The position numbers and the translations under genes were made by a program. Below the pieces are notes generated by a model that saw only the letters and a program-made list of their open reading frames with translations, did not search any database and had not been told where the DNA came from. Shown here piece by piece: positions 2,691 to 23,836 of a stretch of 64,000 bases of DNA. This DNA is from an uncultured Clostridia bacterium (GTDB lineage: Bacteria > Bacillota > Clostridia > Christensenellales > UBA3700), in assembly GCA_947174325.1 (NCBI GenBank), contig CAMWIL010000002.1, forward strand, positions 4,485 through 68,484, in the 5' to 3' direction. Position 1 is the stretch's first letter. Every line of letters begins with the position of its first letter.

Positions 2691-3554
2691 ATGACTTATT
2701 TAATGTCCGTGACGTTTTCGGAAATAGTAACAACGGTTTGTAACTGGCTTGTTACAGAAGGCTTGAAAATAGTCATTGCCTTGATAGTATTCGCTATATA
2801 TTGCGCAATTATCAAGATGATTTGCAAAAAAATCAACAAAAGACTGCAAAAGAAAAACGTAGACGAAACTTTGAGAAAGGTATCTATTCCCTGGTTGAAA
2901 AGAATACTTGTCTTTATAGGCTTTGCTTGCGTACTCGCATATTTGGGAATTGAAACTTCTAGTATCGCCGCGGCTATCACTTCGATAGGTTTGACTATAG
3001 GTCTTGCTTTGCAAGGTTCGTTGGCAAACTTCGCAGGCGGCGTTATAATAATCGTTATGCGTCCGTATAAAATCGGCGATTTTATAGAATGCGCCGGCAA
3101 CAGCGGTACGGTCGAAGATATAAAACTCTTCTACACTTATCTGCGCACAGGCGACAATAAAGTAGTCGTTATCCCCAACGGCGTAGCGGGCAACAGCACG
3201 GTTACCAATTACAGCGTCAAAGATACCAGAAGAAACGATCTAGTGTTTAGCGTATCATACGATTGCGACTTTGAAAAAGCTAAAGAGCTTATTAAAGAAT
3301 GTATGGACAAAAACGAACTTATTCTCAAAGATCCTGCTCCATTTATCAATATCAAAGAACATTCGGCAAATTCTATTGATATTCTTGCAAGATACTTTAC
3401 CAAAAGCGACGATTACTGGACAGCTCATTGGTATATGTTGGAGGCTGTGAAAAAGACGTTTGACGAAAATGGAATTTCCATCCCATATCCTCAACTTGAC
3501 GTTCACGTCAAAACAGACGTCGAAAACGCTCCAAAAGAAAAAGCGAAGAAGTAA
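2691..3554 (+). CDS. mscS: Small-conductance mechanosensitive channel, MscS family
   Basis: TM helices followed by the MscS beta-domain signature (GDFIECAGNSGTVEDIKLFYTYLRTGDNKVVVIPNG). ATG 2691 is preceded by AGAGG; tracked GTG 2682 is less likely. Confidence 0.85.
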   Translation: MTYLMSVTFSEIVTTVCNWLVTEGLKIVIALIVFAIYCAIIKMICKKINKRLQKKNVDETLRKVSIPWLKRILVFIGFACVLAYLGIETSSIAAAITSIGLTIGLALQGSLANFAGGVIIIVMRPYKIGDFIECAGNSGTVEDIKLFYTYLRTGDNKVVVIPNGVAGNSTVTNYSVKDTRRNDLVFSVSYDCDFEKAKELIKECMDKNELILKDPAPFINIKEHSANSIDILARYFTKSDDYWTAHWYMLEAVKKTFDENGISIPYPQLDVHVKTDVENAPKEKAKK

Positions 3555-3603: not shown

Positions 3604-3681
3604 GTTCTCACATCTAAGATGCGAATATAATTTTTGTCCCATTTTATACATATTAATAAATTTTGATTTTTTACTCATTCG

Positions 3682-4245
3682 TCAGCCTTGCAGCCATTGC
3701 AATATCCATTCGACTTGACTCTCCAAAGCTTGCAGACTTCCGTCGTTGACAATGACAAAATCGGCGACGCTTTCCATTTCTTCTGCGCTCATCTGCCTAG
3801 ACATCACGGATAGTATACGTTCCTCTTCATGCCCGTCTCTTTTCTTTACCCTATCAACTCTGGTAGATTTTTCGCTTCTGACAAAAACGACTTCGTCAAA
3901 ATAACTTTTCATCTCAACGCTAAACGCCGATACCTCTACGAACAGATTACTATCGTTTTTCTTGTATATCTTATCTATTTCGGCAAAGACTAAATGATGC
4001 GACAAAGAATTAAGTAAACTCAATTTTTCCTTGTCCGAGAATACTATTTTCGCAAGCTTTGTCTTGTCTATCTTGCCGTCCTTGACTGCGTCAAATTCCT
4101 TTTCTATTTGCGCAATATACATAGGCAATTCGCATATTTTCCTATAAATTTCATCGCAATCGCATACTCTTTCGCCATAACTTGCCAGCAGAGAAAGTAC
4201 GCTGCTCTTTCCGCTCCCTATACCGCCGATGATAGCGATCTTCAT
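3682..4245 (-). CDS. coaE: Dephospho-CoA kinase
   Basis: MKIAIIGGIGSGKSSV P-loop, ~190 aa, directly downstream of polA with a 1-nt overlap. This is the classic polA-coaE arrangement. Confidence 0.9.
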   Translation of the reverse strand: MKIAIIGGIGSGKSSVLSLLASYGERVCDCDEIYRKICELPMYIAQIEKEFDAVKDGKIDKTKLAKIVFSDKEKLSLLNSLSHHLVFAEIDKIYKKNDSNLFVEVSAFSVEMKSYFDEVVFVRSEKSTRVDRVKKRDGHEEERILSVMSRQMSAEEMESVADFVIVNDGSLQALESQVEWILQWLQG

Positions 4246-15678: not shown

Positions 15679-15754
15679 GACTTTCTCCTTGGTATTTATG
15701 TACCTCGCTCCTAATACAATATATTAGAAAAACATATAAACTGTGAGGGAAAAA

Positions 15755-16885
15755 ATGATATATTTAGACAATGCCGCAACTTCAAGATTCAAACCGCGTA
15801 GAATGTTTGACGAGATATTCAAACAACTCTCCTACTCTTCCAATCCGGGACGCGGCGGACACAATGATTCGATCGATACCGCAATAAAAATTTATGACGT
15901 GCGTCAATCGCTAAAATCACTGCTTTCATGCGACGACAGATACGAACTGATCTTTACGCAAAACTGTACCGAAGCTTGCAATCTTGCAATAATAGGTTAT
16001 TTGCTGAACTTTAAAAATCAACACGTAAACGTTATTTTTACGTCAAACGAGCACAATTCGGTTGCGCGTCCGCTATATTATCTCAAAGAAGTTCTCGACG
16101 TAGATCTTATCGAGATCACACCTGATGAAAACGGAGCGATATCCCCCGTTGCGGTAGCCAACGCAATTACCGACGATACAAAACTCATTTGCGTCAACCA
16201 TATCTCCAACGTTACCGGCAACGCTACCGACATTTTCCAAATAGGCAGAACGGCGAAAAAACACGGGATACCTTTTTTTGTCGACGGAGCGCAGTCGCTC
16301 GGTCACGTCGCGATGCACGTTCCCGACAACAACATTGATTTTTTAGCCGCAGCCGGTCATAAAGGGCTGCACGGCGCGCAAGGCACTGGTTTTTTGGTCT
16401 ACAATACAGAACTCAAAATATTCCCAATACGCTTTGGCGGAACGGGTACTCACAGCGAAAGCCTTTCCCAGCCTACCGTACCTCCCGAAGCTTACGAATC
16501 CGGCACGCTCAACAGCGCGGGCATTATCGGTTTGGGCGCAAGCGCGGAATGGACGTATCAAAATCTTGCCAAGATAAGTCTCAATACTCGATATTTGACA
16601 AGCGAACTGCTGTACGGATTAAAACAAATCAAAAACGTAAAACTCTACTCCTCTCAAAATACGGGCGTAGTGTCGTTTAATTTCAAAGATTACTCATCCA
16701 CCGATATCGGCGATTATCTTAATGAAAAAGATATCGCCGTCAGATGCGGTCTGCACTGCGCACCGCTGATACATACGAGACTGGGAACGTTGGAAAGCGG
16801 TACGGTACGCGTAAGCGTGGGATATAACAACTCTATCGGCGATATCCATACTTTATTGAGATGCGTCGATATGCTAAACAAATAA
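15755..16885 (+). CDS. Cysteine desulfurase family protein (class V aminotransferase fold, PLP-dependent)
   Basis: IYLDNAATS N-terminus, FLAAAGHKGLHG (PLP lysine motif), RCGLHCAP near the C-terminus. ATG 15755 follows GAGGG; tracked GTG 15743 is less likely. Confidence 0.85.
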   Translation: MIYLDNAATSRFKPRRMFDEIFKQLSYSSNPGRGGHNDSIDTAIKIYDVRQSLKSLLSCDDRYELIFTQNCTEACNLAIIGYLLNFKNQHVNVIFTSNEHNSVARPLYYLKEVLDVDLIEITPDENGAISPVAVANAITDDTKLICVNHISNVTGNATDIFQIGRTAKKHGIPFFVDGAQSLGHVAMHVPDNNIDFLAAAGHKGLHGAQGTGFLVYNTELKIFPIRFGGTGTHSESLSQPTVPPEAYESGTLNSAGIIGLGASAEWTYQNLAKISLNTRYLTSELLYGLKQIKNVKLYSSQNTGVVSFNFKDYSSTDIGDYLNEKDIAVRCGLHCAPLIHTRLGTLESGTVRVSVGYNNSIGDIHTLLRCVDMLNK

Positions 16886-16942
16886 AACAAGTTGCGGTAA
16901 CTGCAATTAAAATTATGACATATTATAGTATGAGGTGAATTT

Positions 16943-17146
16943 ATGGACATGGACTTTGCAAAGATCATGCAAATGATGAACGCGGGAGGAGGCGGAGGCA
17001 ATAAAGATATGTCAATGCTTATGCAGTTGCTTCCCCAACTTATGAACAACAGCAATCAAAACAAACAGTCTGCTCCCGCTCAAATCAATCTAAATCCCGA
17101 TGAGATAAATAAGACAATAAACAAACTCTACAACGATAACGAATAA
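16943..17146 (+). CDS. Hypothetical small Met/Asn/Gln/Gly-rich protein
   Basis: 67-aa ORF with GAGGTG SD 5 nt upstream, tightly followed by the next ORF. No family recognised. Confidence 0.45.
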   Translation: MDMDFAKIMQMMNAGGGGGNKDMSMLMQLLPQLMNNSNQNKQSAPAQINLNPDEINKTINKLYNDNE

Positions 17147-17156
17147 AAGGAAAATT

Positions 17157-17483
17157 ATGAAAAAAAACAATTTCAGACCGTCGTCAAACAATTTAAATAA
17201 CAATATTTTTAATAAAAATACAGATTTCAACGCCTTTGGCAATATGCCAATAGACGACAACGCCTCACAGCAGGGATCGCTGGAAGAAGAATTAAATAAA
17301 TACTCGCATATGTCCGAAGAAAGGTTGATGCAAGAGATGTTTACGCTTGTAGACAACGGAAGAAAAAACGGTACGCTTGACAATGAAAAACTTGAAGCGT
17401 TTTTCAATTCGGCAAGCTGTATGCTCAACAACGAGCAGATAACAAAATTAAGATATTTGGTAGATATGGCAAAAAACAGTTGA
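17157..17483 (+). CDS. Hypothetical Asn-rich protein
   Basis: 108-aa ORF, 10 nt after the previous stop, AAAGGAAAA upstream. Low-complexity N-terminus and a helical C-terminal half. No family recognised. Confidence 0.5.
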   Translation: MKKNNFRPSSNNLNNNIFNKNTDFNAFGNMPIDDNASQQGSLEEELNKYSHMSEERLMQEMFTLVDNGRKNGTLDNEKLEAFFNSASCMLNNEQITKLRYLVDMAKNS

Positions 17484-17501
17484 TAAATTAGCCATTGTAT
17501 T

Positions 17502-18236
17502 TTACTTCTTTACGTCGGTAAGCAAGCGATATATATTTTGTCTTGTAGTATTGAGTTGATCGGAATATATATCGCGGTCTTCGCGCGGTTGGCTAACGTC
17601 CTCTTTACCGACGATTTTTACTCCCGCGCCGTCAACTCTGTCCAAGACGTATACGCTATCCGCCATCAACAACGCCTCTTCTATATCATGAGTAACAAAT
17701 ACGACCGTCTTTCCTTTAATGAGCGGCGTTAACGTTTCCAAAATCTGTCTTTTCAATTTTATATCTAGTCCCTTAAACGGCTCGTCCATCAACAAAATAT
17801 CGCTCTCAAATACCAACGCTCTTGCCAAAGACGCTCGACTCGCCTGCCCTCCGCTGATATAACGAGGATAAGAACCCGCGCAGTCAGATAATTGCATTTT
17901 CTCAATAAATTCTTTTACCCTCGTCCGTCTTTGTTCCTTGGGCATACTGCTAGGCAAGACGTATTCTATGTTTTTCTCTACCGTCATAGAAGGAATGAGT
18001 CTAGGTTGCTGAAAAACGTATGAGATGCTTTTTTGCTTAATATCATTTTGACCGTTTTGTCCATATAAAATTTGACCTTCAAAATCAAGTTGACCGCTGA
18101 TACAGTTAAGCAACGTAGTCTTTCCTCCGCCTGAAGATCCCATTATGCACGTTACTTTGCCGTTTGGCGCATCCAAGTAGAAATCTTTGAAAATCACCTT
18201 TTCTCCGTATGAGAAGGACAATCCGTTTACCTTCAT
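17502..18236 (-). CDS. ABC transporter ATP-binding protein (NitT/TauT-type)
   Basis: Walker A GSSGGGKTT, signature ISGGQASRASLARAL, Walker B ILLMDEPF, H-loop VTHD. Confidence 0.9.
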   Translation of the reverse strand: MKVNGLSFSYGEKVIFKDFYLDAPNGKVTCIMGSSGGGKTTLLNCISGQLDFEGQILYGQNGQNDIKQKSISYVFQQPRLIPSMTVEKNIEYVLPSSMPKEQRRTRVKEFIEKMQLSDCAGSYPRYISGGQASRASLARALVFESDILLMDEPFKGLDIKLKRQILETLTPLIKGKTVVFVTHDIEEALLMADSVYVLDRVDGAGVKIVGKEDVSQPREDRDIYSDQLNTTRQNIYRLLTDVKK

Positions 18237-19006
18237 CTTCCTTTCACCGCCTTTTTCTCAATAACGATCACGATCAACTCAAATATGCCCCCCAAAATTA
18301 TTGCGACCGCAGTCCAAGCAAGCAAAGTAGAAGTGTCAAGTATTATCTTTGACAGTTGCATATACACTCCGATACTGTCAGCCGTTTGAGCCAATACTTC
18401 CGCAGCAATGACAAGTTTGAGATTAAGCCCTATGGAGCTTTTAATGCCCGTAAAAGCTACTGGCAAAGCCTGCGGCAAATACATTTTGAATATCATTCTT
18501 TTCCTATCTATTTTGTACGTCTTCGACATCTCTATCAAGTCTTTATCCACGCTTTCTATAGCGTCGCAAAAACTTGTATAGAGCATGGGGAAAATTACAC
18601 AGAACGCTACCAATATAGTCGATTGGAAAGAATTAAACCAAATCAACGCGATCAGTATTATCGACATAGTCGGCATTATCCTTACAAGCAATATTATAGG
18701 AGATAACGCGCGCCTTAAATACGGACACATCTTTGTAGCTACAGCCAAAATAATCGCAAACGCAAAAGACAAAAAGTAAGATAATGCCGCCCTGCCCACC
18801 GTACCTGCCACAGCCTTATAAAAACTTGATTGAGCAAACAGCAAAAAGAATTTTTTAATAATGTTGGGAATTGACGGAACAAGCAATTCTATACCTACCG
18901 CTTTGCTGACGATCGCATAAACCGCAAGCGCGACGACCAACGTCGCAATAGGTATAGTTAGGTTAAGCAATAAATATAGTTTTTTTCTGTTCTCTTTCCC
19001 CGTCAT
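18233..19006 (-). CDS. ABC transporter permease (NitT/TauT-type, BPD_transp_1)
   Basis: Six-TM permease with an EAA-like loop (DKDLIEMSKTYKIDRKRMIFKMYLPQALP). 4-nt overlap with the ATPase gene. Confidence 0.85.
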   Translation of the reverse strand: MTGKENRKKLYLLLNLTIPIATLVVALAVYAIVSKAVGIELLVPSIPNIIKKFFLLFAQSSFYKAVAGTVGRAALSYFLSFAFAIILAVATKMCPYLRRALSPIILLVRIMPTMSIILIALIWFNSFQSTILVAFCVIFPMLYTSFCDAIESVDKDLIEMSKTYKIDRKRMIFKMYLPQALPVAFTGIKSSIGLNLKLVIAAEVLAQTADSIGVYMQLSKIILDTSTLLAWTAVAIILGGIFELIVIVIEKKAVKGR

Positions 19007-19049
19007 TTGCTCCCTTAATCTATTCTCTTATTTTACGAATTAGATTTGA

Positions 19050-20057
19050 TCATTTACTGATATAGTAAAATTCGTCGCTCGGCATCTTTCCACCAATAAG
19101 ATTAGCGTTTATCGCCATTACAGCTTTTAGCGTATTTTCGTAATACTCCCTGCCGTTCTCCATAGATATAGTATCTATGTTGCATCGCGCAATCACTTGC
19201 GAGCTTAGATTGTTTTGCAAAGAAGTTTGGGGATACAGAGCTTTGATATTATTCTCGGCAAGTTCCGCATTTTCAAGCAAAACCGTTTTGTTTTTTGCAA
19301 ATTCTTCCAACAGTTTTTTGACAAATTTCTCGTCTTCGCAAACGTTCGACTTTGCTATCAAGACGGCTTGAGCATATCCCGCATACCCATCCGAGTTGTA
19401 TTCGGACCACAACTCTTGCAAATTGAAAATCTCGTAAAGTCCCTCGCTAATACCCGTTTGAACGTCAGGCTCTGCAAGTACTCCGTATACTTGTTCTCCA
19501 CTTTTATTCGCCGCCAAAAGTCGCGCGTTAACTTCGCTTCCATTTGCAAAATACTTTATCGTTACAACGCCGTCTTGAGCTTGTTCGCCCGTCTTAAACG
19601 CAACGTTTTTATTATTCAACAGCGTCTTGAATATCATATCCGGAACACTGTTTTGTCCAATCGAATATACGAGTTTTCCAACAAGTCCCTCAATACCGTC
19701 TACGCTCTTTTCTTGAGATGAACAAACGAAAAGATTACCGTTTGTCACGACCGCCAATATTTTCACGTCGTTGCCGCCGTTGAATAATATCGACGCAAGA
19801 TTTGCAGGGACTATAGCAAGATCGCTATTCGACGCTTCTGTCTGTATTGCGGAAGCGGCTACGATTTTTTTATTCAATTTATATACCGTATCGCTTGTCG
19901 TGACTTCGTCTGAAAGACATGCGATAGACAACGCAGGCGCGCCGTCGGGAACTACCAAAACGTACCCTTCTTCGTCCTTTTGACAAGCGGCTAACAAAGC
20001 TATTCCCAACAAAAGCGTAACGATCAACAACAAAGCTAAGAATTTTTTGCTCTTCAT
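19050..20057 (-). CDS. ABC transporter substrate-binding lipoprotein (NMT1/THI5-like, NitT/TauT family)
   Basis: Lipoprotein signal peptide with lipobox LLAAC. ~310-aa periplasmic-binding-type body. AAGGAG SD. Confidence 0.7.
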   Translation of the reverse strand: MKSKKFLALLLIVTLLLGIALLAACQKDEEGYVLVVPDGAPALSIACLSDEVTTSDTVYKLNKKIVAASAIQTEASNSDLAIVPANLASILFNGGNDVKILAVVTNGNLFVCSSQEKSVDGIEGLVGKLVYSIGQNSVPDMIFKTLLNNKNVAFKTGEQAQDGVVTIKYFANGSEVNARLLAANKSGEQVYGVLAEPDVQTGISEGLYEIFNLQELWSEYNSDGYAGYAQAVLIAKSNVCEDEKFVKKLLEEFAKNKTVLLENAELAENNIKALYPQTSLQNNLSSQVIARCNIDTISMENGREYYENTLKAVMAINANLIGGKMPSDEFYYISK

Positions 20058-20114
20058 ATTTATCTCCTTTTATGATAATAAAAATTTAACGTTTCTATAC
20101 GAAAGCCCGAAAAA

Positions 20115-20375
20115 TCAAGCTTCCTCGATTTCAAATGAAGTCACTGCCGATTTGACGTATACTTCGTTGAGCTTTCCTAGTTTACCGCAAAGAGCGGAAA
20201 TCTGTTCGTTTGTTCCCTTTACAATTACGCTGATAGTGCTTATACCGGTTTCTTTATCAGGCACGCCCATTCTTCCGATTATTATTTCACTGAACGTCGA
20301 AAGTAAATTCTGTATAGCCAAAGCGGTATCTTTGTCTTTTCTAAGCACTATGCCTATTACGCCTATTCTCTTCAT
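20115..20375 (-). CDS. TM1266-family small ACT-like protein (family annotated as putative iron-only hydrogenase system regulator)
   Basis: MKRIGVIGIVLRKDKDTALAIQNLLSTFSEIIIGRMGVPDKETGISTISVIVKGTNEQISALCGKLGKL matches my memory of the TIGR03959 pattern. ATG 20375 follows AAGGAG; tracked start 20393 lies inside the terminator T-tract. Confidence 0.65.
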   Translation of the reverse strand: MKRIGVIGIVLRKDKDTALAIQNLLSTFSEIIIGRMGVPDKETGISTISVIVKGTNEQISALCGKLGKLNEVYVKSAVTSFEIEEA

Positions 20376-20390
20376 AATTCTCCTTTTGAG

Positions 20391-20420
20391 CAAATAAAAA
20401 ACTCCGCAAAAATGCGGAGC
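20391..20420 (-). terminator. Intrinsic terminator inside the 5' leader of the TM1266-like/ABC operon (attenuator)
   Basis: Minus strand G-CTCCGCA-TTTT-TGCGGAG-TTTTTTATTTG. Stem arms are 20419-20413 and 20408-20402. It ends 6 nt before the SD. Confidence 0.7.
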
Positions 20421-20456
20421 ATAAGTAAATGCGTTATACTTTCTTTCTTACTCTCC
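20416..20456 (-). promoter_or_regulatory. Candidate antiterminator helix competing with the leader terminator
   Basis: GGAGAGTAAG (20456-20447) is complementary to CTTATGCTCC (20425-20416), with 1 mismatch and 1 G-U. It overlaps the terminator 5' arm at 20419-20416. Confidence 0.45.
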
Positions 20457-20534
20457 GATTTGCTCATCGATTTGGATATAAATTTATATTTCCGGATCGG
20501 CGAGAAAGTTCACCGACCAGGAATTATCTCTGTT

Positions 20535-20563
20535 ATTATAGTCTTTTTATAGAGTATTGTCAA
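20535..20563 (-). promoter_or_regulatory. Consensus sigma-A promoter of the TM1266-like/ABC operon
   Basis: Minus strand TTGACA (20563-20558), exactly 17 nt, TATAAT (20540-20535). Confidence 0.7.
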
Positions 20564-20566
20564 GGA

Positions 20567-21988
20567 TCAGTATCCAAAAATCTCCATCGCCCTTGCGACG
20601 CATTTGTCGATACTGTAATCGGCTATTCTGTCCTCAACTACGTTTTCAGGCAACGGCGTAAATCCTTTTTCGTGAATGGTGACCGTCCATTCCAACGCGC
20701 CGTTCGCGTCCCTTGTCGGAATAAAATATCTTCCGTTTGTGACGTATAGCAGCTGTCCGTTAGACAACTCAAAAGTTCTTTGCGCAACGCCTTTTCCATA
20801 AGTCGTAGTACCTACTATTTGCGTGCCGTTGTAATATTGCAACGCTCCTATCAATCCCTCCGAAGCCGAAGCTGTATTTCCGTTGGTCAAAACGACTATC
20901 TCAAATCCATCTACCGACTTGCATATTGGGAAAGCGTACGGCAACGATTCATTGAGAACGTTGGTAGAATTTGACGTGACGATATCCGACTGCTCTTTTC
21001 CGTATCCGACGTTGCTTATCAAATTCATAATCGGCAGTTGACTTGCAGTTGGGTTGTTGAGCAAATACTGCGAAACGTATTCAAGACTGGTAAGCTGACC
21101 GCCGCCGTTGTCGCGCAGGTCGAGAATAAGCTTCTTCTTTTTATCTTTGATAAATTGAGATACGCAATCAGCAAAGTCTGCATCTGCTTCACTGTCAAAC
21201 ATTGTCATTCTTATTATCGCAGTATCGCCTTCATAAGGATAGTAATATGCGTATTTCATTGTATCTTCATACGTCTTAGTGATTTCAAAAGCATAATAGC
21301 CGTCGGTATAACCACCGTTGCCGTCGTACTTTTGAATAATATACACTACGTCTTTGAAATCCGAAAATTGATTGAGTACGCTTCTAAAATAGGTATAAGT
21401 CAAATTTTCCACTCTTTGCGTAATATATTTTTCGTTGCCTTCTTTATCTACGAATTTATATCCGATACGTACTATCTTATCCCCTTCCCTCATCTTTACG
21501 TCTGCGCCAACAGGATCAAAAGACGTATCCAAATTATTGTCTTCGTCATATCTGTTTACAGCTCTTGCACTGTAAGCGGGCATATTCGGCGCAACCAAAG
21601 TAATGATCTGCTCGTTGTAAATAGAACTTGAGATTTGTATACCTATTGATCCGGATGAGCCGGTTGGGTCGTCAGACGATACGATTCCCGAAAATGCGTC
21701 GAGAGAACCGGCAAAACCTGCCGCTGCCATTTCTTGGAACGTCTCCCAAGATATATCCTTGTAATAATACTTTTTGATCAATTCGTACGTCTCGATCATC
21801 AACGGCATATCTTCATTTATTCCGCTATTGCGACCTACTACCATACCGCCTATAAAAGCGCAAGCAGAAATCACTATGACTATTACCGTCACCAACGCAA
21901 TAACTTTTATGGAAACTTTGCCGCTCTTCTTTTCATTGAGCGTACTCGTAGAGTCCTCCGCAAAAATATCCTTCAATCTATCGTCCAA
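20567..21988 (-). CDS. S41 family C-terminal processing peptidase, N-terminally membrane-anchored
   Basis: N-terminal TM helix. LILDLRDNGGGQL, NGNTASASE (catalytic Ser) and TTYGKG (catalytic Lys) motifs. Confidence 0.85.
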   Translation of the reverse strand: MDDRLKDIFAEDSTSTLNEKKSGKVSIKVIALVTVIVIVISACAFIGGMVVGRNSGINEDMPLMIETYELIKKYYYKDISWETFQEMAAAGFAGSLDAFSGIVSSDDPTGSSGSIGIQISSSIYNEQIITLVAPNMPAYSARAVNRYDEDNNLDTSFDPVGADVKMREGDKIVRIGYKFVDKEGNEKYITQRVENLTYTYFRSVLNQFSDFKDVVYIIQKYDGNGGYTDGYYAFEITKTYEDTMKYAYYYPYEGDTAIIRMTMFDSEADADFADCVSQFIKDKKKKLILDLRDNGGGQLTSLEYVSQYLLNNPTASQLPIMNLISNVGYGKEQSDIVTSNSTNVLNESLPYAFPICKSVDGFEIVVLTNGNTASASEGLIGALQYYNGTQIVGTTTYGKGVAQRTFELSNGQLLYVTNGRYFIPTRDANGALEWTVTIHEKGFTPLPENVVEDRIADYSIDKCVARAMEIFGY

Positions 21989-22037
21989 TTCAACACCTCT
22001 CTATCGATCTCGCAAATTTTGCAAACCGATCTCCCTA

Positions 22038-22946
22038 TTATTTATTTTCTTGCGAAATTATTTTCTCGCAATCTTTATCGTAGTAAAAACCTTTTGCTCC
22101 TATTCCTTCCTTGAAAGCAAAACAAACTTTCTTCCCGACGTAAATATCGCTTAAAGGCTTATTGACTGAATAAAATTTCCCGTCTATGTTTGCATAATAT
22201 CCTTGTTCATTTTTTCCCAAAACGTCCATATATATCGAATATCCGCAAACTATCGCGCTTTCTATATTTTCCGGACGTAGCGCAGCGTTCTCCAACGAAC
22301 GGTTACTCGTACATTCTCCGTTTGCAACAACGGCGATATTACGCTTGCCTAATTTTCTTGCAAAGTTTACGTCCTGCGTGGCGATGACAACGCTTTTATT
22401 CAACACGACGTCTTGCAATATATCGGCGATCTCCTCTTGCTTCTCTTGTTGCAAATCTTTCCACACGTCGTCAACTAAATACAGTCGCCTTGGTATACAA
22501 AACAATCTTGCTAGCAACAATTTGACTTTGTCAAAATCGCTCATTCCATTGACGTTTTCTTCTTTGTTTAAAGAAAACGCATTTACAACGTTATTTATAC
22601 AGTCTTCAATGCGCTCATCGTCGTAATTTCTCAAGCGCATAGGATATTCCAATATCTGTCCTACGGTCTGGTTTTTGTTCAAAGACGAAAAATCAAACGT
22701 AAATCCGATATCTCTGTCTTTGAAATCTATCTCGCCCAACTCATTACCGTCAAGCAATATCTTTCCGGATTTGATCTCCTCCAATCCCGCAACGCAGCGC
22801 AACAACAATGTCTTTCCGCTTCCTTCTCTTCCGTAAAGCGTCAAAACCTCGCCTTTATCCATCGCCAGAGAGATATGGCTTATGGAAAAATCGCTTCCGA
22901 TATACGCGGTCTCAACGTCGTCAAGAGCAAGAAGTCTTTTTGTCAT
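22038..22946 (-). CDS. Orphan ABC ATPase-like protein with degenerate catalytic motifs and a MalK/TOBE-like C-terminal extension
   Basis: Walker A GREGSGKT is intact. Q-loop Q->D (TFDFSS), signature LSGGQ->MSDFD, Walker B LYLVDDV (no catalytic Glu), H-loop THD->TQD. No permease gene adjacent. Confidence 0.7.
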   Translation of the reverse strand: MTKRLLALDDVETAYIGSDFSISHISLAMDKGEVLTLYGREGSGKTLLLRCVAGLEEIKSGKILLDGNELGEIDFKDRDIGFTFDFSSLNKNQTVGQILEYPMRLRNYDDERIEDCINNVVNAFSLNKEENVNGMSDFDKVKLLLARLFCIPRRLYLVDDVWKDLQQEKQEEIADILQDVVLNKSVVIATQDVNFARKLGKRNIAVVANGECTSNRSLENAALRPENIESAIVCGYSIYMDVLGKNEQGYYANIDGKFYSVNKPLSDIYVGKKVCFAFKEGIGAKGFYYDKDCEKIISQENK

Positions 22947-22952
22947 ATTTAT

Positions 22953-22981
22953 ATTATATTACTAATTATGGCTAATTACAA
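22953..22981 (-). promoter_or_regulatory. Putative sigma-A promoter placed for a leaderless transcript of the degenerate ABC ATPase gene
   Basis: Minus strand TTGTAA (22981-22976), 17 nt, TATAAT (22958-22953), 6 nt (ATAAAT), ATG 22946. No SD. Confidence 0.5.
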
Positions 22982-23149
22982 GTAAAATATTTTTAACTTA
23001 ACAAATAAAAAGTCGTTGACTCAACTCAAATTCAAATTGTGTTTTTTACGATAATGACATCATCAACAGCATAATTCACCATTAAATGCTGAAAATTGTC
23101 GGATATGTGTAGATTATATCGAATATTTGAACATAATTCAAAACATTGT

Positions 23150-23836
23150 TCAATTTTGATCGCTTATAAATTCAAGTAAAATCGAGTAGCTTTGAATGTA
23201 GTTTTTGCACAAAGCGGAAAAATCCTTTTCGCTATTAGAGTATTTATCATATACTCCGCAGGTCAAAAAACCGCCCGCGCTCGCGCCTTCGATAGCAAGA
23301 GGGATATCTTCAAATACCATACACTCGCTTGGCTTGATTCCAATCTTTTCCGCAGCTTTAAGATAGATATCGGGAAATCCTTTTCCCCTTGATACCTCTT
23401 CAATTGAAGTAAGAGGACAATATACGCCTAATTTGCGATATGACAAACCGTTTCTGTCTAGACAGATTTCGGCAACGTCTCTAAACAGCGTCGTAGCAAA
23501 AGCTACCTTTACGCCTTTTGACAATAGTTTTCGAATAAAATCATATGCGCCGTCTTTTAACTTTATATTATTCGCATACTCTTCTTTCACCATCTCAACC
23601 CATCTGTTTTTTATTTGTTCGGTAGTCAAAGGCAGAGAAAAGCGCGTTTTCGTATACAAAGCCAACTCTTCAAAATGCATTTGCTTTACAGCTTCGGTAT
23701 AGTCGCTTGTGACAGTCAAGCCGTTTTCGGCAAGAAATTCCCTATCGACCTTTTCCCAAACCCACATAGAATCAAGCAACGTTCCGTCAAGATCGAATAT
23801 CACGCCTTTGATTTCTTCTCCAAATAATTTTACCAT
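23150..23836 (-). CDS. HAD-IA family hydrolase (beta-phosphoglucomutase / sugar-phosphatase-like)
   Basis: Motif I IFDLDGTLLDS and a C-terminal FEDIPLAIEGASAGG motif. Confidence 0.85.
   Translation of the reverse strand: MVKLFGEEIKGVIFDLDGTLLDSMWVWEKVDREFLAENGLTVTSDYTEAVKQMHFEELALYTKTRFSLPLTTEQIKNRWVEMVKEEYANNIKLKDGAYDFIRKLLSKGVKVAFATTLFRDVAEICLDRNGLSYRKLGVYCPLTSIEEVSRGKGFPDIYLKAAEKIGIKPSECMVFEDIPLAIEGASAGGFLTCGVYDKYSNSEKDFSALCKNYIQSYSILLEFISDQN

Follow-up and report, generated by a model that had tools for sequence, protein, structure and literature searches.

A compact conserved hairpin in the leader of TM1266-like/transporter operons of Christensenellales-like Clostridia: part of a probable transcription attenuator and a candidate orphan riboswitch

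The leader of an operon encoding a TM1266-like protein and an ABC importer, on the minus strand of the window (the whole 64-kb stretch of DNA analysed here), carries an irregular hairpin of approximately 35 nt whose sequence and pairing are conserved in front of related operons of Christensenellales-like Clostridia. The comparative evidence lends good support to the view that this element represents a new sensor class inside a known kind of regulation. It is highly probable that the leader has the attenuator architecture described below, built from the hairpin, an antiterminator and an intrinsic terminator. The reading we prefer is that it acts in cis as an OFF transcription attenuator of the TM1266-like/transporter operon with a small molecule as its effector, in other words as an orphan riboswitch, and we give this reading about an even chance of being correct. 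The coordinates of all features are collected in Table 1.

Table 1. Features of the leader and of the operon downstream of it, in window coordinates; colons mark canonical pairs and dots predicted non-canonical or wobble pairs.
Feature	Positions	Strand	Details
Sigma-A-type promoter	20535..20563	-	TTGACA 20563-20558, 17-nt spacer, TATAAT 20540-20535; consensus score 12/12
Accessory 5' hairpin	20490..20523	-	UUCC-U-GGUCGGUG / loop AACUUUCU / CGCCGAUC-C-GGAA
Conserved core motif (sensor hairpin)	20439..20479	-	Covariance model R1, 46.2 bits, E = 3.6e-10
Core, outer helix	U20476:A20446, C20475:G20447, C20474.A20448	-	C20475:G20447 invariant
Core, 3x3 internal loop	A20473-A20471 opposite G20451-U20450-A20449	-	Loop-E-like, NAA/GUA
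Core, inner helix, lower part	U20470:A20452, C20469:G20453, G20468.A20454, A20467.G20455	-	
Core, inner helix, upper part	U20466.G20456, G20465:C20457, A20464:U20458	-	
Core, apical loop	20463-20459	-	Variable
Antiterminator	20415..20457	-	CGGAGAGUAAG (20457-20447) with CUUAUGCUCCG (20425-20415), 10/11 positions paired
Intrinsic terminator	20392..20420	-	Stem GCUCCGCA / UGCGGAGU (20420-20401), loop UUUU, U-tract UUUUUAUUU (20400-20392)
Shine-Dalgarno (SD) sequence and TM1266-like stand-alone ACT/NikR_C-fold protein, first gene	20115..20385	-	SD 20385-20380, ATG 20375, 86 aa
Regulated ABC importer	17502..20057	-	Pfam and NCBIfam matches
NMT1/SsuA-type substrate-binding lipoprotein	20057-19050	-	
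Permease, NitT/TauT-type	19006-18233	-	
ATPase	18236-17502	-	

A preliminary description of the locus had proposed a textbook sigma-A promoter 4 nt past the stop of an S41 peptidase gene and a leader of about 150 nt ending in the SD AAGGAG and the ATG, with a canonical intrinsic terminator closing the leader and a mutually exclusive antiterminator overlapping it; each of these elements was recovered. A consensus scan of positions 19000-22000 returned the listed promoter as the only perfect site, and the S41 peptidase reading frame ends at 20567 on the minus strand, so that the promoter begins 4 nt beyond the last base of the stop codon. Judged from the position of the promoter, transcription probably starts at about 20528 (minus strand), approximately 153 nt before the ATG. 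The fold of the whole leader was more stable than those of 200/200 dinucleotide shuffles (z = -3.9), and comparable promoters were seen at the equivalent place in most of the related loci.

The stem of the terminator in the window comprises eight pairs, five of them G-C, as returned by a terminator scan, and a terminator was found downstream of the motif in all 69 of the 69 loci examined. All components of a generic intrinsic-terminator attenuator are present: a promoter and a leader and, ahead of the first gene, a G+C-rich hairpin that runs into a U-tract. The 5' strand of the antiterminator, CGGAGAGUAAG, is the 3' strand of the sensor hairpin, and its partner CUUAUGCUCCG consists of the 5' arm of the terminator together with 5 nt upstream of that arm. 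When the transcript was truncated ahead of the 3' arm of the terminator, the minimum-free-energy fold was the antiterminator, at -11.8 kcal/mol; nearest-neighbour energies cannot score the non-canonical core, and the balance between hairpin and antiterminator therefore lies outside this figure. The complementarity seen in the window was enriched across the loci. Duplexes between the 3' strand of the motif and the 5' arm plus loop of the terminator had a mean energy of -12.7 kcal/mol, against -9.0 kcal/mol for shuffled arms, and the complementarity reached p<=0.05 in 27 of 56 leaders, where approximately three would be expected. It persists although the terminator sequences differ among lineages, and in this sense the mutually exclusive antiterminator is statistically conserved.

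The occurrence of the motif was followed through 80 genome loci, each encoding a relative 53-95% identical to the TM1266-like protein; almost all come from metagenome-assembled genomes of Christensenellales or unclassified Clostridia. A covariance model, R1, was built from the motif sequences of these relatives, and in the 64-kb window it gave a single real match, the core listed in Table 1. R1 matched in 71 of the 80 loci, in each case in sense orientation and at a distance of 50-430 nt before the TM1266-like gene; no match comparable to the leader motif was found elsewhere in the flanks (+-4 kb) of these loci. Public metagenome contigs scanned with an exact pattern yielded 99 stretches, approximately 85 of which have a TM1266 homologue 90-330 nt downstream; among the remainder, contig ends intervene or the matches are non-covarying and due to chance. 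Further motif-positive loci (L180/L181 and L190-L192) bring the total to about 170 instances, all from related gut-bacterial sequences. Wherever the downstream gene could be read among these instances it was TM1266-like, and no other gene class was found behind the motif. The range of the motif is narrow, being confined to Christensenellales-like Clostridia. Within it, two operons with TM1266-like and ABC importer genes have no recognisable motif (L060 and L189), and the sole orthologous ABC operon that lacks the TM1266-like gene (L187/L188) lacks the motif as well. This joint absence carries little weight, as leader and gene are contiguous and a single deletion would suffice.

The element shared by the upstream regions of the relatives reads CC-N-AA-UCGAUGA-(variable loop)-UCGGAGAGUAAG, and its copy in the window (20479-20439, minus strand) consists of the small TCGAT/ATCGG hairpin together with GGAGAGUAAG. 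The small hairpin had already been pointed out in the preliminary description and is found as UCGAUGA...UCGGAGA at 20470-20452 (minus strand); the core also takes in GGAGAGTAAG, which that description had assigned to the antiterminator. The 48, and later 71, distinct motif sequences that were aligned have 11 invariant columns. In the set of 71, the inner helix is 98.6% paired, and three of its five pairs have changed on both sides: pair 11:31 is UA in 63 sequences, AU in seven and CG in one; pair 17:25 is AU in 65 and UA in three; and pair 15:27 is UG in 59, UA in four, AU in three and CG in three. The covariation score of the core was 0.222, compared to 0.100 after shuffling, and none of 500 shuffles scored as high. 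In a control in which the partner columns were slid, pairing fell from 80% to 35-49%, and RNAalifold, run independently, predicted the same five pairs of the inner helix. The outer helix is weaker (66% paired) yet widely varied, pair 7:35 being UA in 38 sequences, CG in ten and UG in one. The data show that the core motif is a genuine RNA-level structure. Its non-canonical pairs, including the tandem G.A/A.G, are predictions from the aligned sequences.

Three classes of leader can be told apart. In class A, to which the window and its close relatives belong, the promoter is followed by an extra 5' hairpin and then by the core; in class B, represented by many loci, 3-15 nt separate the end of the promoter from the core, whose outer helix is longer; and in class C, found at eight loci, two tandem cores precede one terminator. 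The layout of class B implies that the hairpin of about 40 nt is by itself the sensor. The 5' hairpin of class A is likewise a real structure: among 13 close relatives 91% of its cells are paired, seven of its 12 pairs have changed on both sides, its covariation score is 0.50 as opposed to 0.26 after shuffling (0/500 as high), and its loop is conserved. It is a lineage-specific accessory. As a sensor it was discarded, being absent from the leaders in which the promoter abuts the core; moreover, the complementarity of its loop to the core was not significant and its trend was flat in the 29/33 loci covered. Of the possible sensor region sketched earlier, the small hairpin is thus retained as the core of the conserved motif, and the 11-position hairpin 5' of it is not. 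In the tandem leaders the apical loops of the two cores are mutually complementary and their sequences differ by lineage (GUCGGC/GCCGAC, GCGGGC/GCCUGC, ACGCC/GGCGU and GUCGAAGCC/GGCUU..GAC), and loops that differ and yet remain complementary amount to covariation for a contact between the units.

The element is apparently new. The 4227 models of Rfam 15, which include TPP, SAM, preQ1, ZTP, guanidine, NMT1/xanthine-I, thiS/HMP-PP, T-box and PyrR, gave no match at the gathering threshold to the whole window or to five related loci. At E<=10, the leader and its tandem variant returned chance-level matches only, such as preQ1-II (18.7 bits against a threshold of 47) and the PyrG leader (19 against 65), and at E<=1 a single chance match was returned for the leader of L189, which lacks the motif. 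The preliminary description had not been able to match the leader to the conserved cores of the TPP, SAM, glycine, purine, ykkC, ZTP, fluoride or yybP classes, and the Rfam scan bears this out; a full-text literature search found no relevant paper linking TM1266, the iron-only hydrogenase system regulator or Christensenellales to a riboswitch, nor one describing the element.

Several known RNAs resemble it in part. The xanthine-I riboswitch (NMT1 motif), located ahead of NMT1/tauA-type transporters, is a genetic OFF switch formed by a small hairpin whose internal bulge is conserved (PMC7373994). The present element shares with it a small rod-like hairpin shape, conserved nucleotides in internal loops, a position before NMT1-type ABC transporter genes and, in the proposed mechanism, the OFF logic. 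Xanthine-I is proteobacterial, whereas the present motif is clostridial, differs in conserved sequence and loop layout and is joined to a terminator/antiterminator platform, and the Rfam model of xanthine-I did not match the leader even at E<=10. By these likenesses xanthine-I may be regarded as the nearest analogue in kind.

The attenuators of pyr operons controlled by PyrR work through an anti-antiterminator, an antiterminator and a terminator, and the regulator gene stands first after the attenuator with a transporter gene next. A comparable three-structure logic, in which a stabilised 5' hairpin prevents the antiterminator, and a comparable gene order, with a putative regulator followed by a transporter, are seen here. 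Unlike them, however, the present leaders have neither the PyrR binding-loop consensus nor an Rfam PyrR match, and no pyr genes are involved; in addition, PyrR has a PRTase fold, while the candidate TM1266-like protein has an ACT fold and its RNA binding is putative. Another parallel is offered by YkoF, an ACT-like protein that binds HMP/thiamin and is encoded in the ykoFEDC operon under the control of a TPP riboswitch. There too a small ACT-like protein stands first in a controlled uptake operon, a possible model for a TM1266-like protein beside a true riboswitch; protein family and RNA are different, and no TPP riboswitch match was obtained here. The tandem leaders recall the glycine riboswitch and other tandem aptamers, with two sensor units in series before one terminator and an inter-unit contact (eight loci), but the units are hairpins of about 40 nt rather than three-way junctions, and most leaders have a single one.

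In its internal loop the core resembles loop E of 5S rRNA, the L25 site: the 3' strand GAGAGUA(G/A)G and the 5' CC(G)A are the same as E. coli G98-G106 and C70-A73, and the 12-nt GAGAGUAGGGAA, present in L006 and L011, is identical to positions 98-109 of E. coli 5S rRNA. This likeness suggests the same submotif of a sheared G.A and a reverse-Hoogsteen A.U pair. The likeness extends to no more than half of loop E, though; the other half is replaced by two Watson-Crick pairs and the tandem G.A, and the context is an mRNA leader. With filters off, R1 did not match E. coli rrfB (5S rRNA), which argues for a common structural module and not for mimicry of the whole site. Mimicry of 5S rRNA was accordingly rejected, the strand segments alone being shared. 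A kink-turn was rejected as well: the tandem G20468.A20454 and A20467.G20455 is flanked symmetrically by Watson-Crick or wobble pairs, and there is no 3-nt bulge.

The first gene behind the leader encodes a protein that matched PF21699 (5.2e-26, 90.8 bits, cut-off 27), TIGR03959 (91.9 bits, cut-off 60.8) and PDB entry 2nzc (1.9e-14; TM-score 0.84-0.90 for the predicted model). The structures nearest to this model (pLDDT 89) are 2nzc, NikR C-domains, IlvN and other ACT domains; all of these nearest PDB structures are small-molecule or metal-binding regulatory domains, with no RNA binder among them. The TM1266 family, to which annotation assigns a putative role in regulating the iron-only hydrogenase system, is small (1188 clusters at 50% identity) and consists of a stand-alone domain of approximately 85 aa with no DNA-binding domain; domain fusions are essentially absent, and none is informative.

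The gene order of the window operon recurs in the related loci. As a single sequence, the substrate-binding protein had neither a Pfam nor a PDB sequence match; its confidently predicted model (pLDDT 93.9) places it in the NMT1/SsuA/ThiY class, with 3hn0 as the nearest structure and PqqT, SsuA, TauA, ThiY and a thiamin-binding protein next. Profile and fold searches gave no clue to the ligand, as both are topped by 3hn0, which has no assigned substrate, and the matches behind it are chemically diverse (PQQ, sulfonates, taurine, FAMP and thiamin). In one subclade (L037, L180 and L181) an ECF S-component takes the place of the ABC importer, and the motif and the TM1266-like gene are kept. The S-component is equally silent on the ligand, with a generic PF12822 match only and five close homologues. 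The exchange of transporter under a retained motif fits control of the uptake of one metabolite, and the displacement of an ABC by an ECF system points to a micronutrient-like compound.

In the mechanism that we propose, transcription of the leader would start at the consensus promoter, and the nascent RNA would fold into the irregular hairpin of about 35 nt, with its outer helix, loop-E-like 3x3 loop and inner helix containing the tandem G.A. As the 3' strand of this hairpin, CGGAGAGUAAG, would double as the 5' strand of the antiterminator, the hairpin would be an anti-antiterminator. Unless the hairpin is held, CGGAGAGUAAG would pair with the 5' arm of the terminator and RNA polymerase would read through (ON). 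If an effector stabilised it, no antiterminator would be formed, the terminator would fold, and transcription would stop before the TM1266-like gene (OFF). Stabilisation of the hairpin should thus favour termination, from which we infer the OFF logic of the attenuator. The effector would be a small molecule bound directly by the conserved non-canonical core, and what is sensed would be the compound taken up or one of its derivatives.

The preliminary description had seen in the leader either a transcription-attenuation riboswitch or a protein-dependent attenuator, and the conservation, the covariation and the antiterminator statistics support that pair of readings; conservation upstream of orthologous operons, one of the checks it had proposed, is borne out by a motif and downstream terminator kept in 71/80 loci with compensatory changes. 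Between the two, the evidence divides as follows. What a riboswitch presents, and what is seen here, is a covarying structure that is conserved ahead of functionally related genes and has invariant nucleotides left unpaired or in non-canonical pairs. The non-canonical core, the tandem arrangement of cores and the precedent of the NMT1 motif (xanthine-I; PMC7373994) all speak for a small-molecule effector. So does the constancy of the motif when the transporter type switches from ABC to an ECF S-component. On the other hand, 3hn0, the closest solved binding protein, yields no ligand candidate, and the aptamer would be a very simple one, a single hairpin in which no pseudoknot was detected. Simple single hairpins are likewise typical of protein-binding sites. 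The majority of validated riboswitch classes regulate genes of several types, and here the TM1266-like gene lies directly downstream in every readable case among the approximately 170 instances, in a narrow group of bacteria.

One possible explanation for that association is that the attenuator is the same and its effector is the co-encoded TM1266-like ACT protein, a reading that is possible but that we consider on balance doubtful. A ligand-loaded oligomer would bind the loop-E-like anti-antiterminator hairpin and cause termination, in a PyrR-like negative autoregulation. The first gene is indeed TM1266-like at every true and readable instance of the motif, whether an ABC or an ECF transporter follows, and the ABC operon without this gene (L187/L188) has no motif. 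A deletion of the contiguous leader and gene accounts for the joint loss in L187, however, and adjacency is trivial if the TM1266-like gene always heads the operon. An ACT-like domain of about 85 aa that is annotated as a regulator, has no DNA-binding domain and is essentially unfused would suit the part, although the protein is not notably basic in sequence and its ACT or NikR_C-fold neighbours in the PDB bind small molecules or metals and none of them RNA, which also counts in favour of a riboswitch. Irregular loop-E-type helices are classic platforms for proteins, and both the loop-E-like fold of the core, with the identity of GAGAGUAGGGAA to 5S rRNA, and the simplicity of the hairpin agree with such a use; tandem hairpins would suit an oligomeric binder. 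Operons with TM1266-like and ABC importer genes and no recognisable motif (L060 and L189) weigh against the protein and on the side of the riboswitch. The fuller proposal would make the TM1266-like protein an attenuation protein of a new kind, one that binds RNA in dependence on its ligand and has the half-loop-E hairpin as its operator; this is slightly more doubtful still.

An effector encoded elsewhere, be it a small RNA, a protein that binds loop E as L25/Ctc does, or some other RNA-binding protein, is unlikely. The simple sensor and the loop-E module common to 5S rRNA would fit it, but there is a single regulon, the motif occurring nowhere else in the 64 kb or in the flanks; the failure of R1 to score 5S rRNA speaks for likeness of a module instead of a whole site; and a link between L25 and a transporter operon has no biological rationale. 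It is very improbable that the conserved sequence is no sensor at all and serves instead as an operator in the DNA, encodes a leader peptide or acts constitutively on stability or termination. RNA pairing is kept by compensatory changes, the motif is strand-specific and, as DNA, non-palindromic, and the conserved overlap with the antiterminator argues for a switch. In the window the AUG within the conserved CGAUGA does open a frame of 33 codons that ends at the start of the TM1266-like gene; a leader peptide was nevertheless rejected, since the variants CGAAGA and CAACGU have no AUG, no SD precedes it, and the frame is not kept because the length of the apical loop varies by non-multiples of three.

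If the preferred reading of the element as a riboswitch is correct, it would constitute an orphan class whose aptamer, of approximately 35-40 nt, is very small. Its ligand would tell what is imported by a widespread uptake system of Christensenellales-type gut bacteria, in which the TM1266-like protein goes with either an NMT1-type ABC importer or an ECF S-component. Should the TM1266-like protein be the effector instead, it would define a new family of RNA-binding attenuation proteins and the first RNA-binding role for the ACT/NikR_C fold, and would give a function and a mechanism to the structural-genomics orphan 2nzc, which is linked by annotation to [FeFe]-hydrogenase systems. With either effector, the element is compact and well delimited and could serve as a small regulatory part.

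The order of genes around the operon was found to be kept between the window (15743-23836) and the related loci L001-L013, and the genes flanking the operon on both sides are listed in the table below. The binding protein of the window is 100% identical to P0121, a database protein from a 'Clostridia bacterium' MAG. When the whole 64-kb window (1-64000) was compared with the Rfam families, none was found at gathering score, and the window therefore contains no tRNA and no known riboswitch or leader. In L189, another related locus, the sequence UCAAUGUAUUUCGGCGAAACGG at ~212-238 is similar to a degenerate core motif and obtained no score with R1, the covariance model of that motif; it could be a product of chance or a divergent relative.

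Features in the window and in related loci (L-numbers; coordinates internal to each locus)
Feature	Location	Detail
Upstream genes in kept order	window vs L001-L013	HAD hydrolase, 302-aa ABC-ATPase-like protein, S41 peptidase
Downstream genes in kept order	window vs L001-L013	two small Met/Gly/Asn-rich ORFs (16943-17146, 17157-17483), NifS-like gene
ECF-type S-component	L037 4252-4800; L180 3001-3570; L181 471-1040	PF12822
G+C-rich hairpin array	last ~90 nt before TM1266 start, e.g. L071 3905-3990	

In one subclade (L037, L180 and L181), the ABC importer after the TM1266-like gene is replaced by an ECF-type S-component of ~185 aa, and the core RNA motif and terminator remain upstream without change. 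L014 carries a single core motif followed by two TM1266-like paralogues in tandem (3194-3448 and 3615-3869). The orthologous operon of L187 (2177-6005) and L188 retains synteny without either the leader or the TM1266-like gene; there, 28 nt lie between the S41 peptidase gene and the start of the binding-protein gene.

The spacer between terminator and TM1266 start is unusually long (300-430 nt) in L033, L035, L036, L071, L043 and L059, and is apparently non-coding. Immediately 5' of the start codon in L043, L047, L059, L060 and L071, two to three hairpins of ~15 nt, each preceded by AUAUCAC, form an array which is an element separate from the core motif.

An [FeFe]-hydrogenase-like gene (Fe_hyd_lg_C) is directly followed in L185 (1966-6039) by genes for a distant binding protein of the NMT1_2 type and for an ABC ATPase, and in L189 (4247-4747) a NuoE-like 2Fe-2S protein is encoded downstream of a TM1266 and ABC operon. 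These neighbours hint that the transporter family, as with TM1266, is tied to hydrogenase systems.
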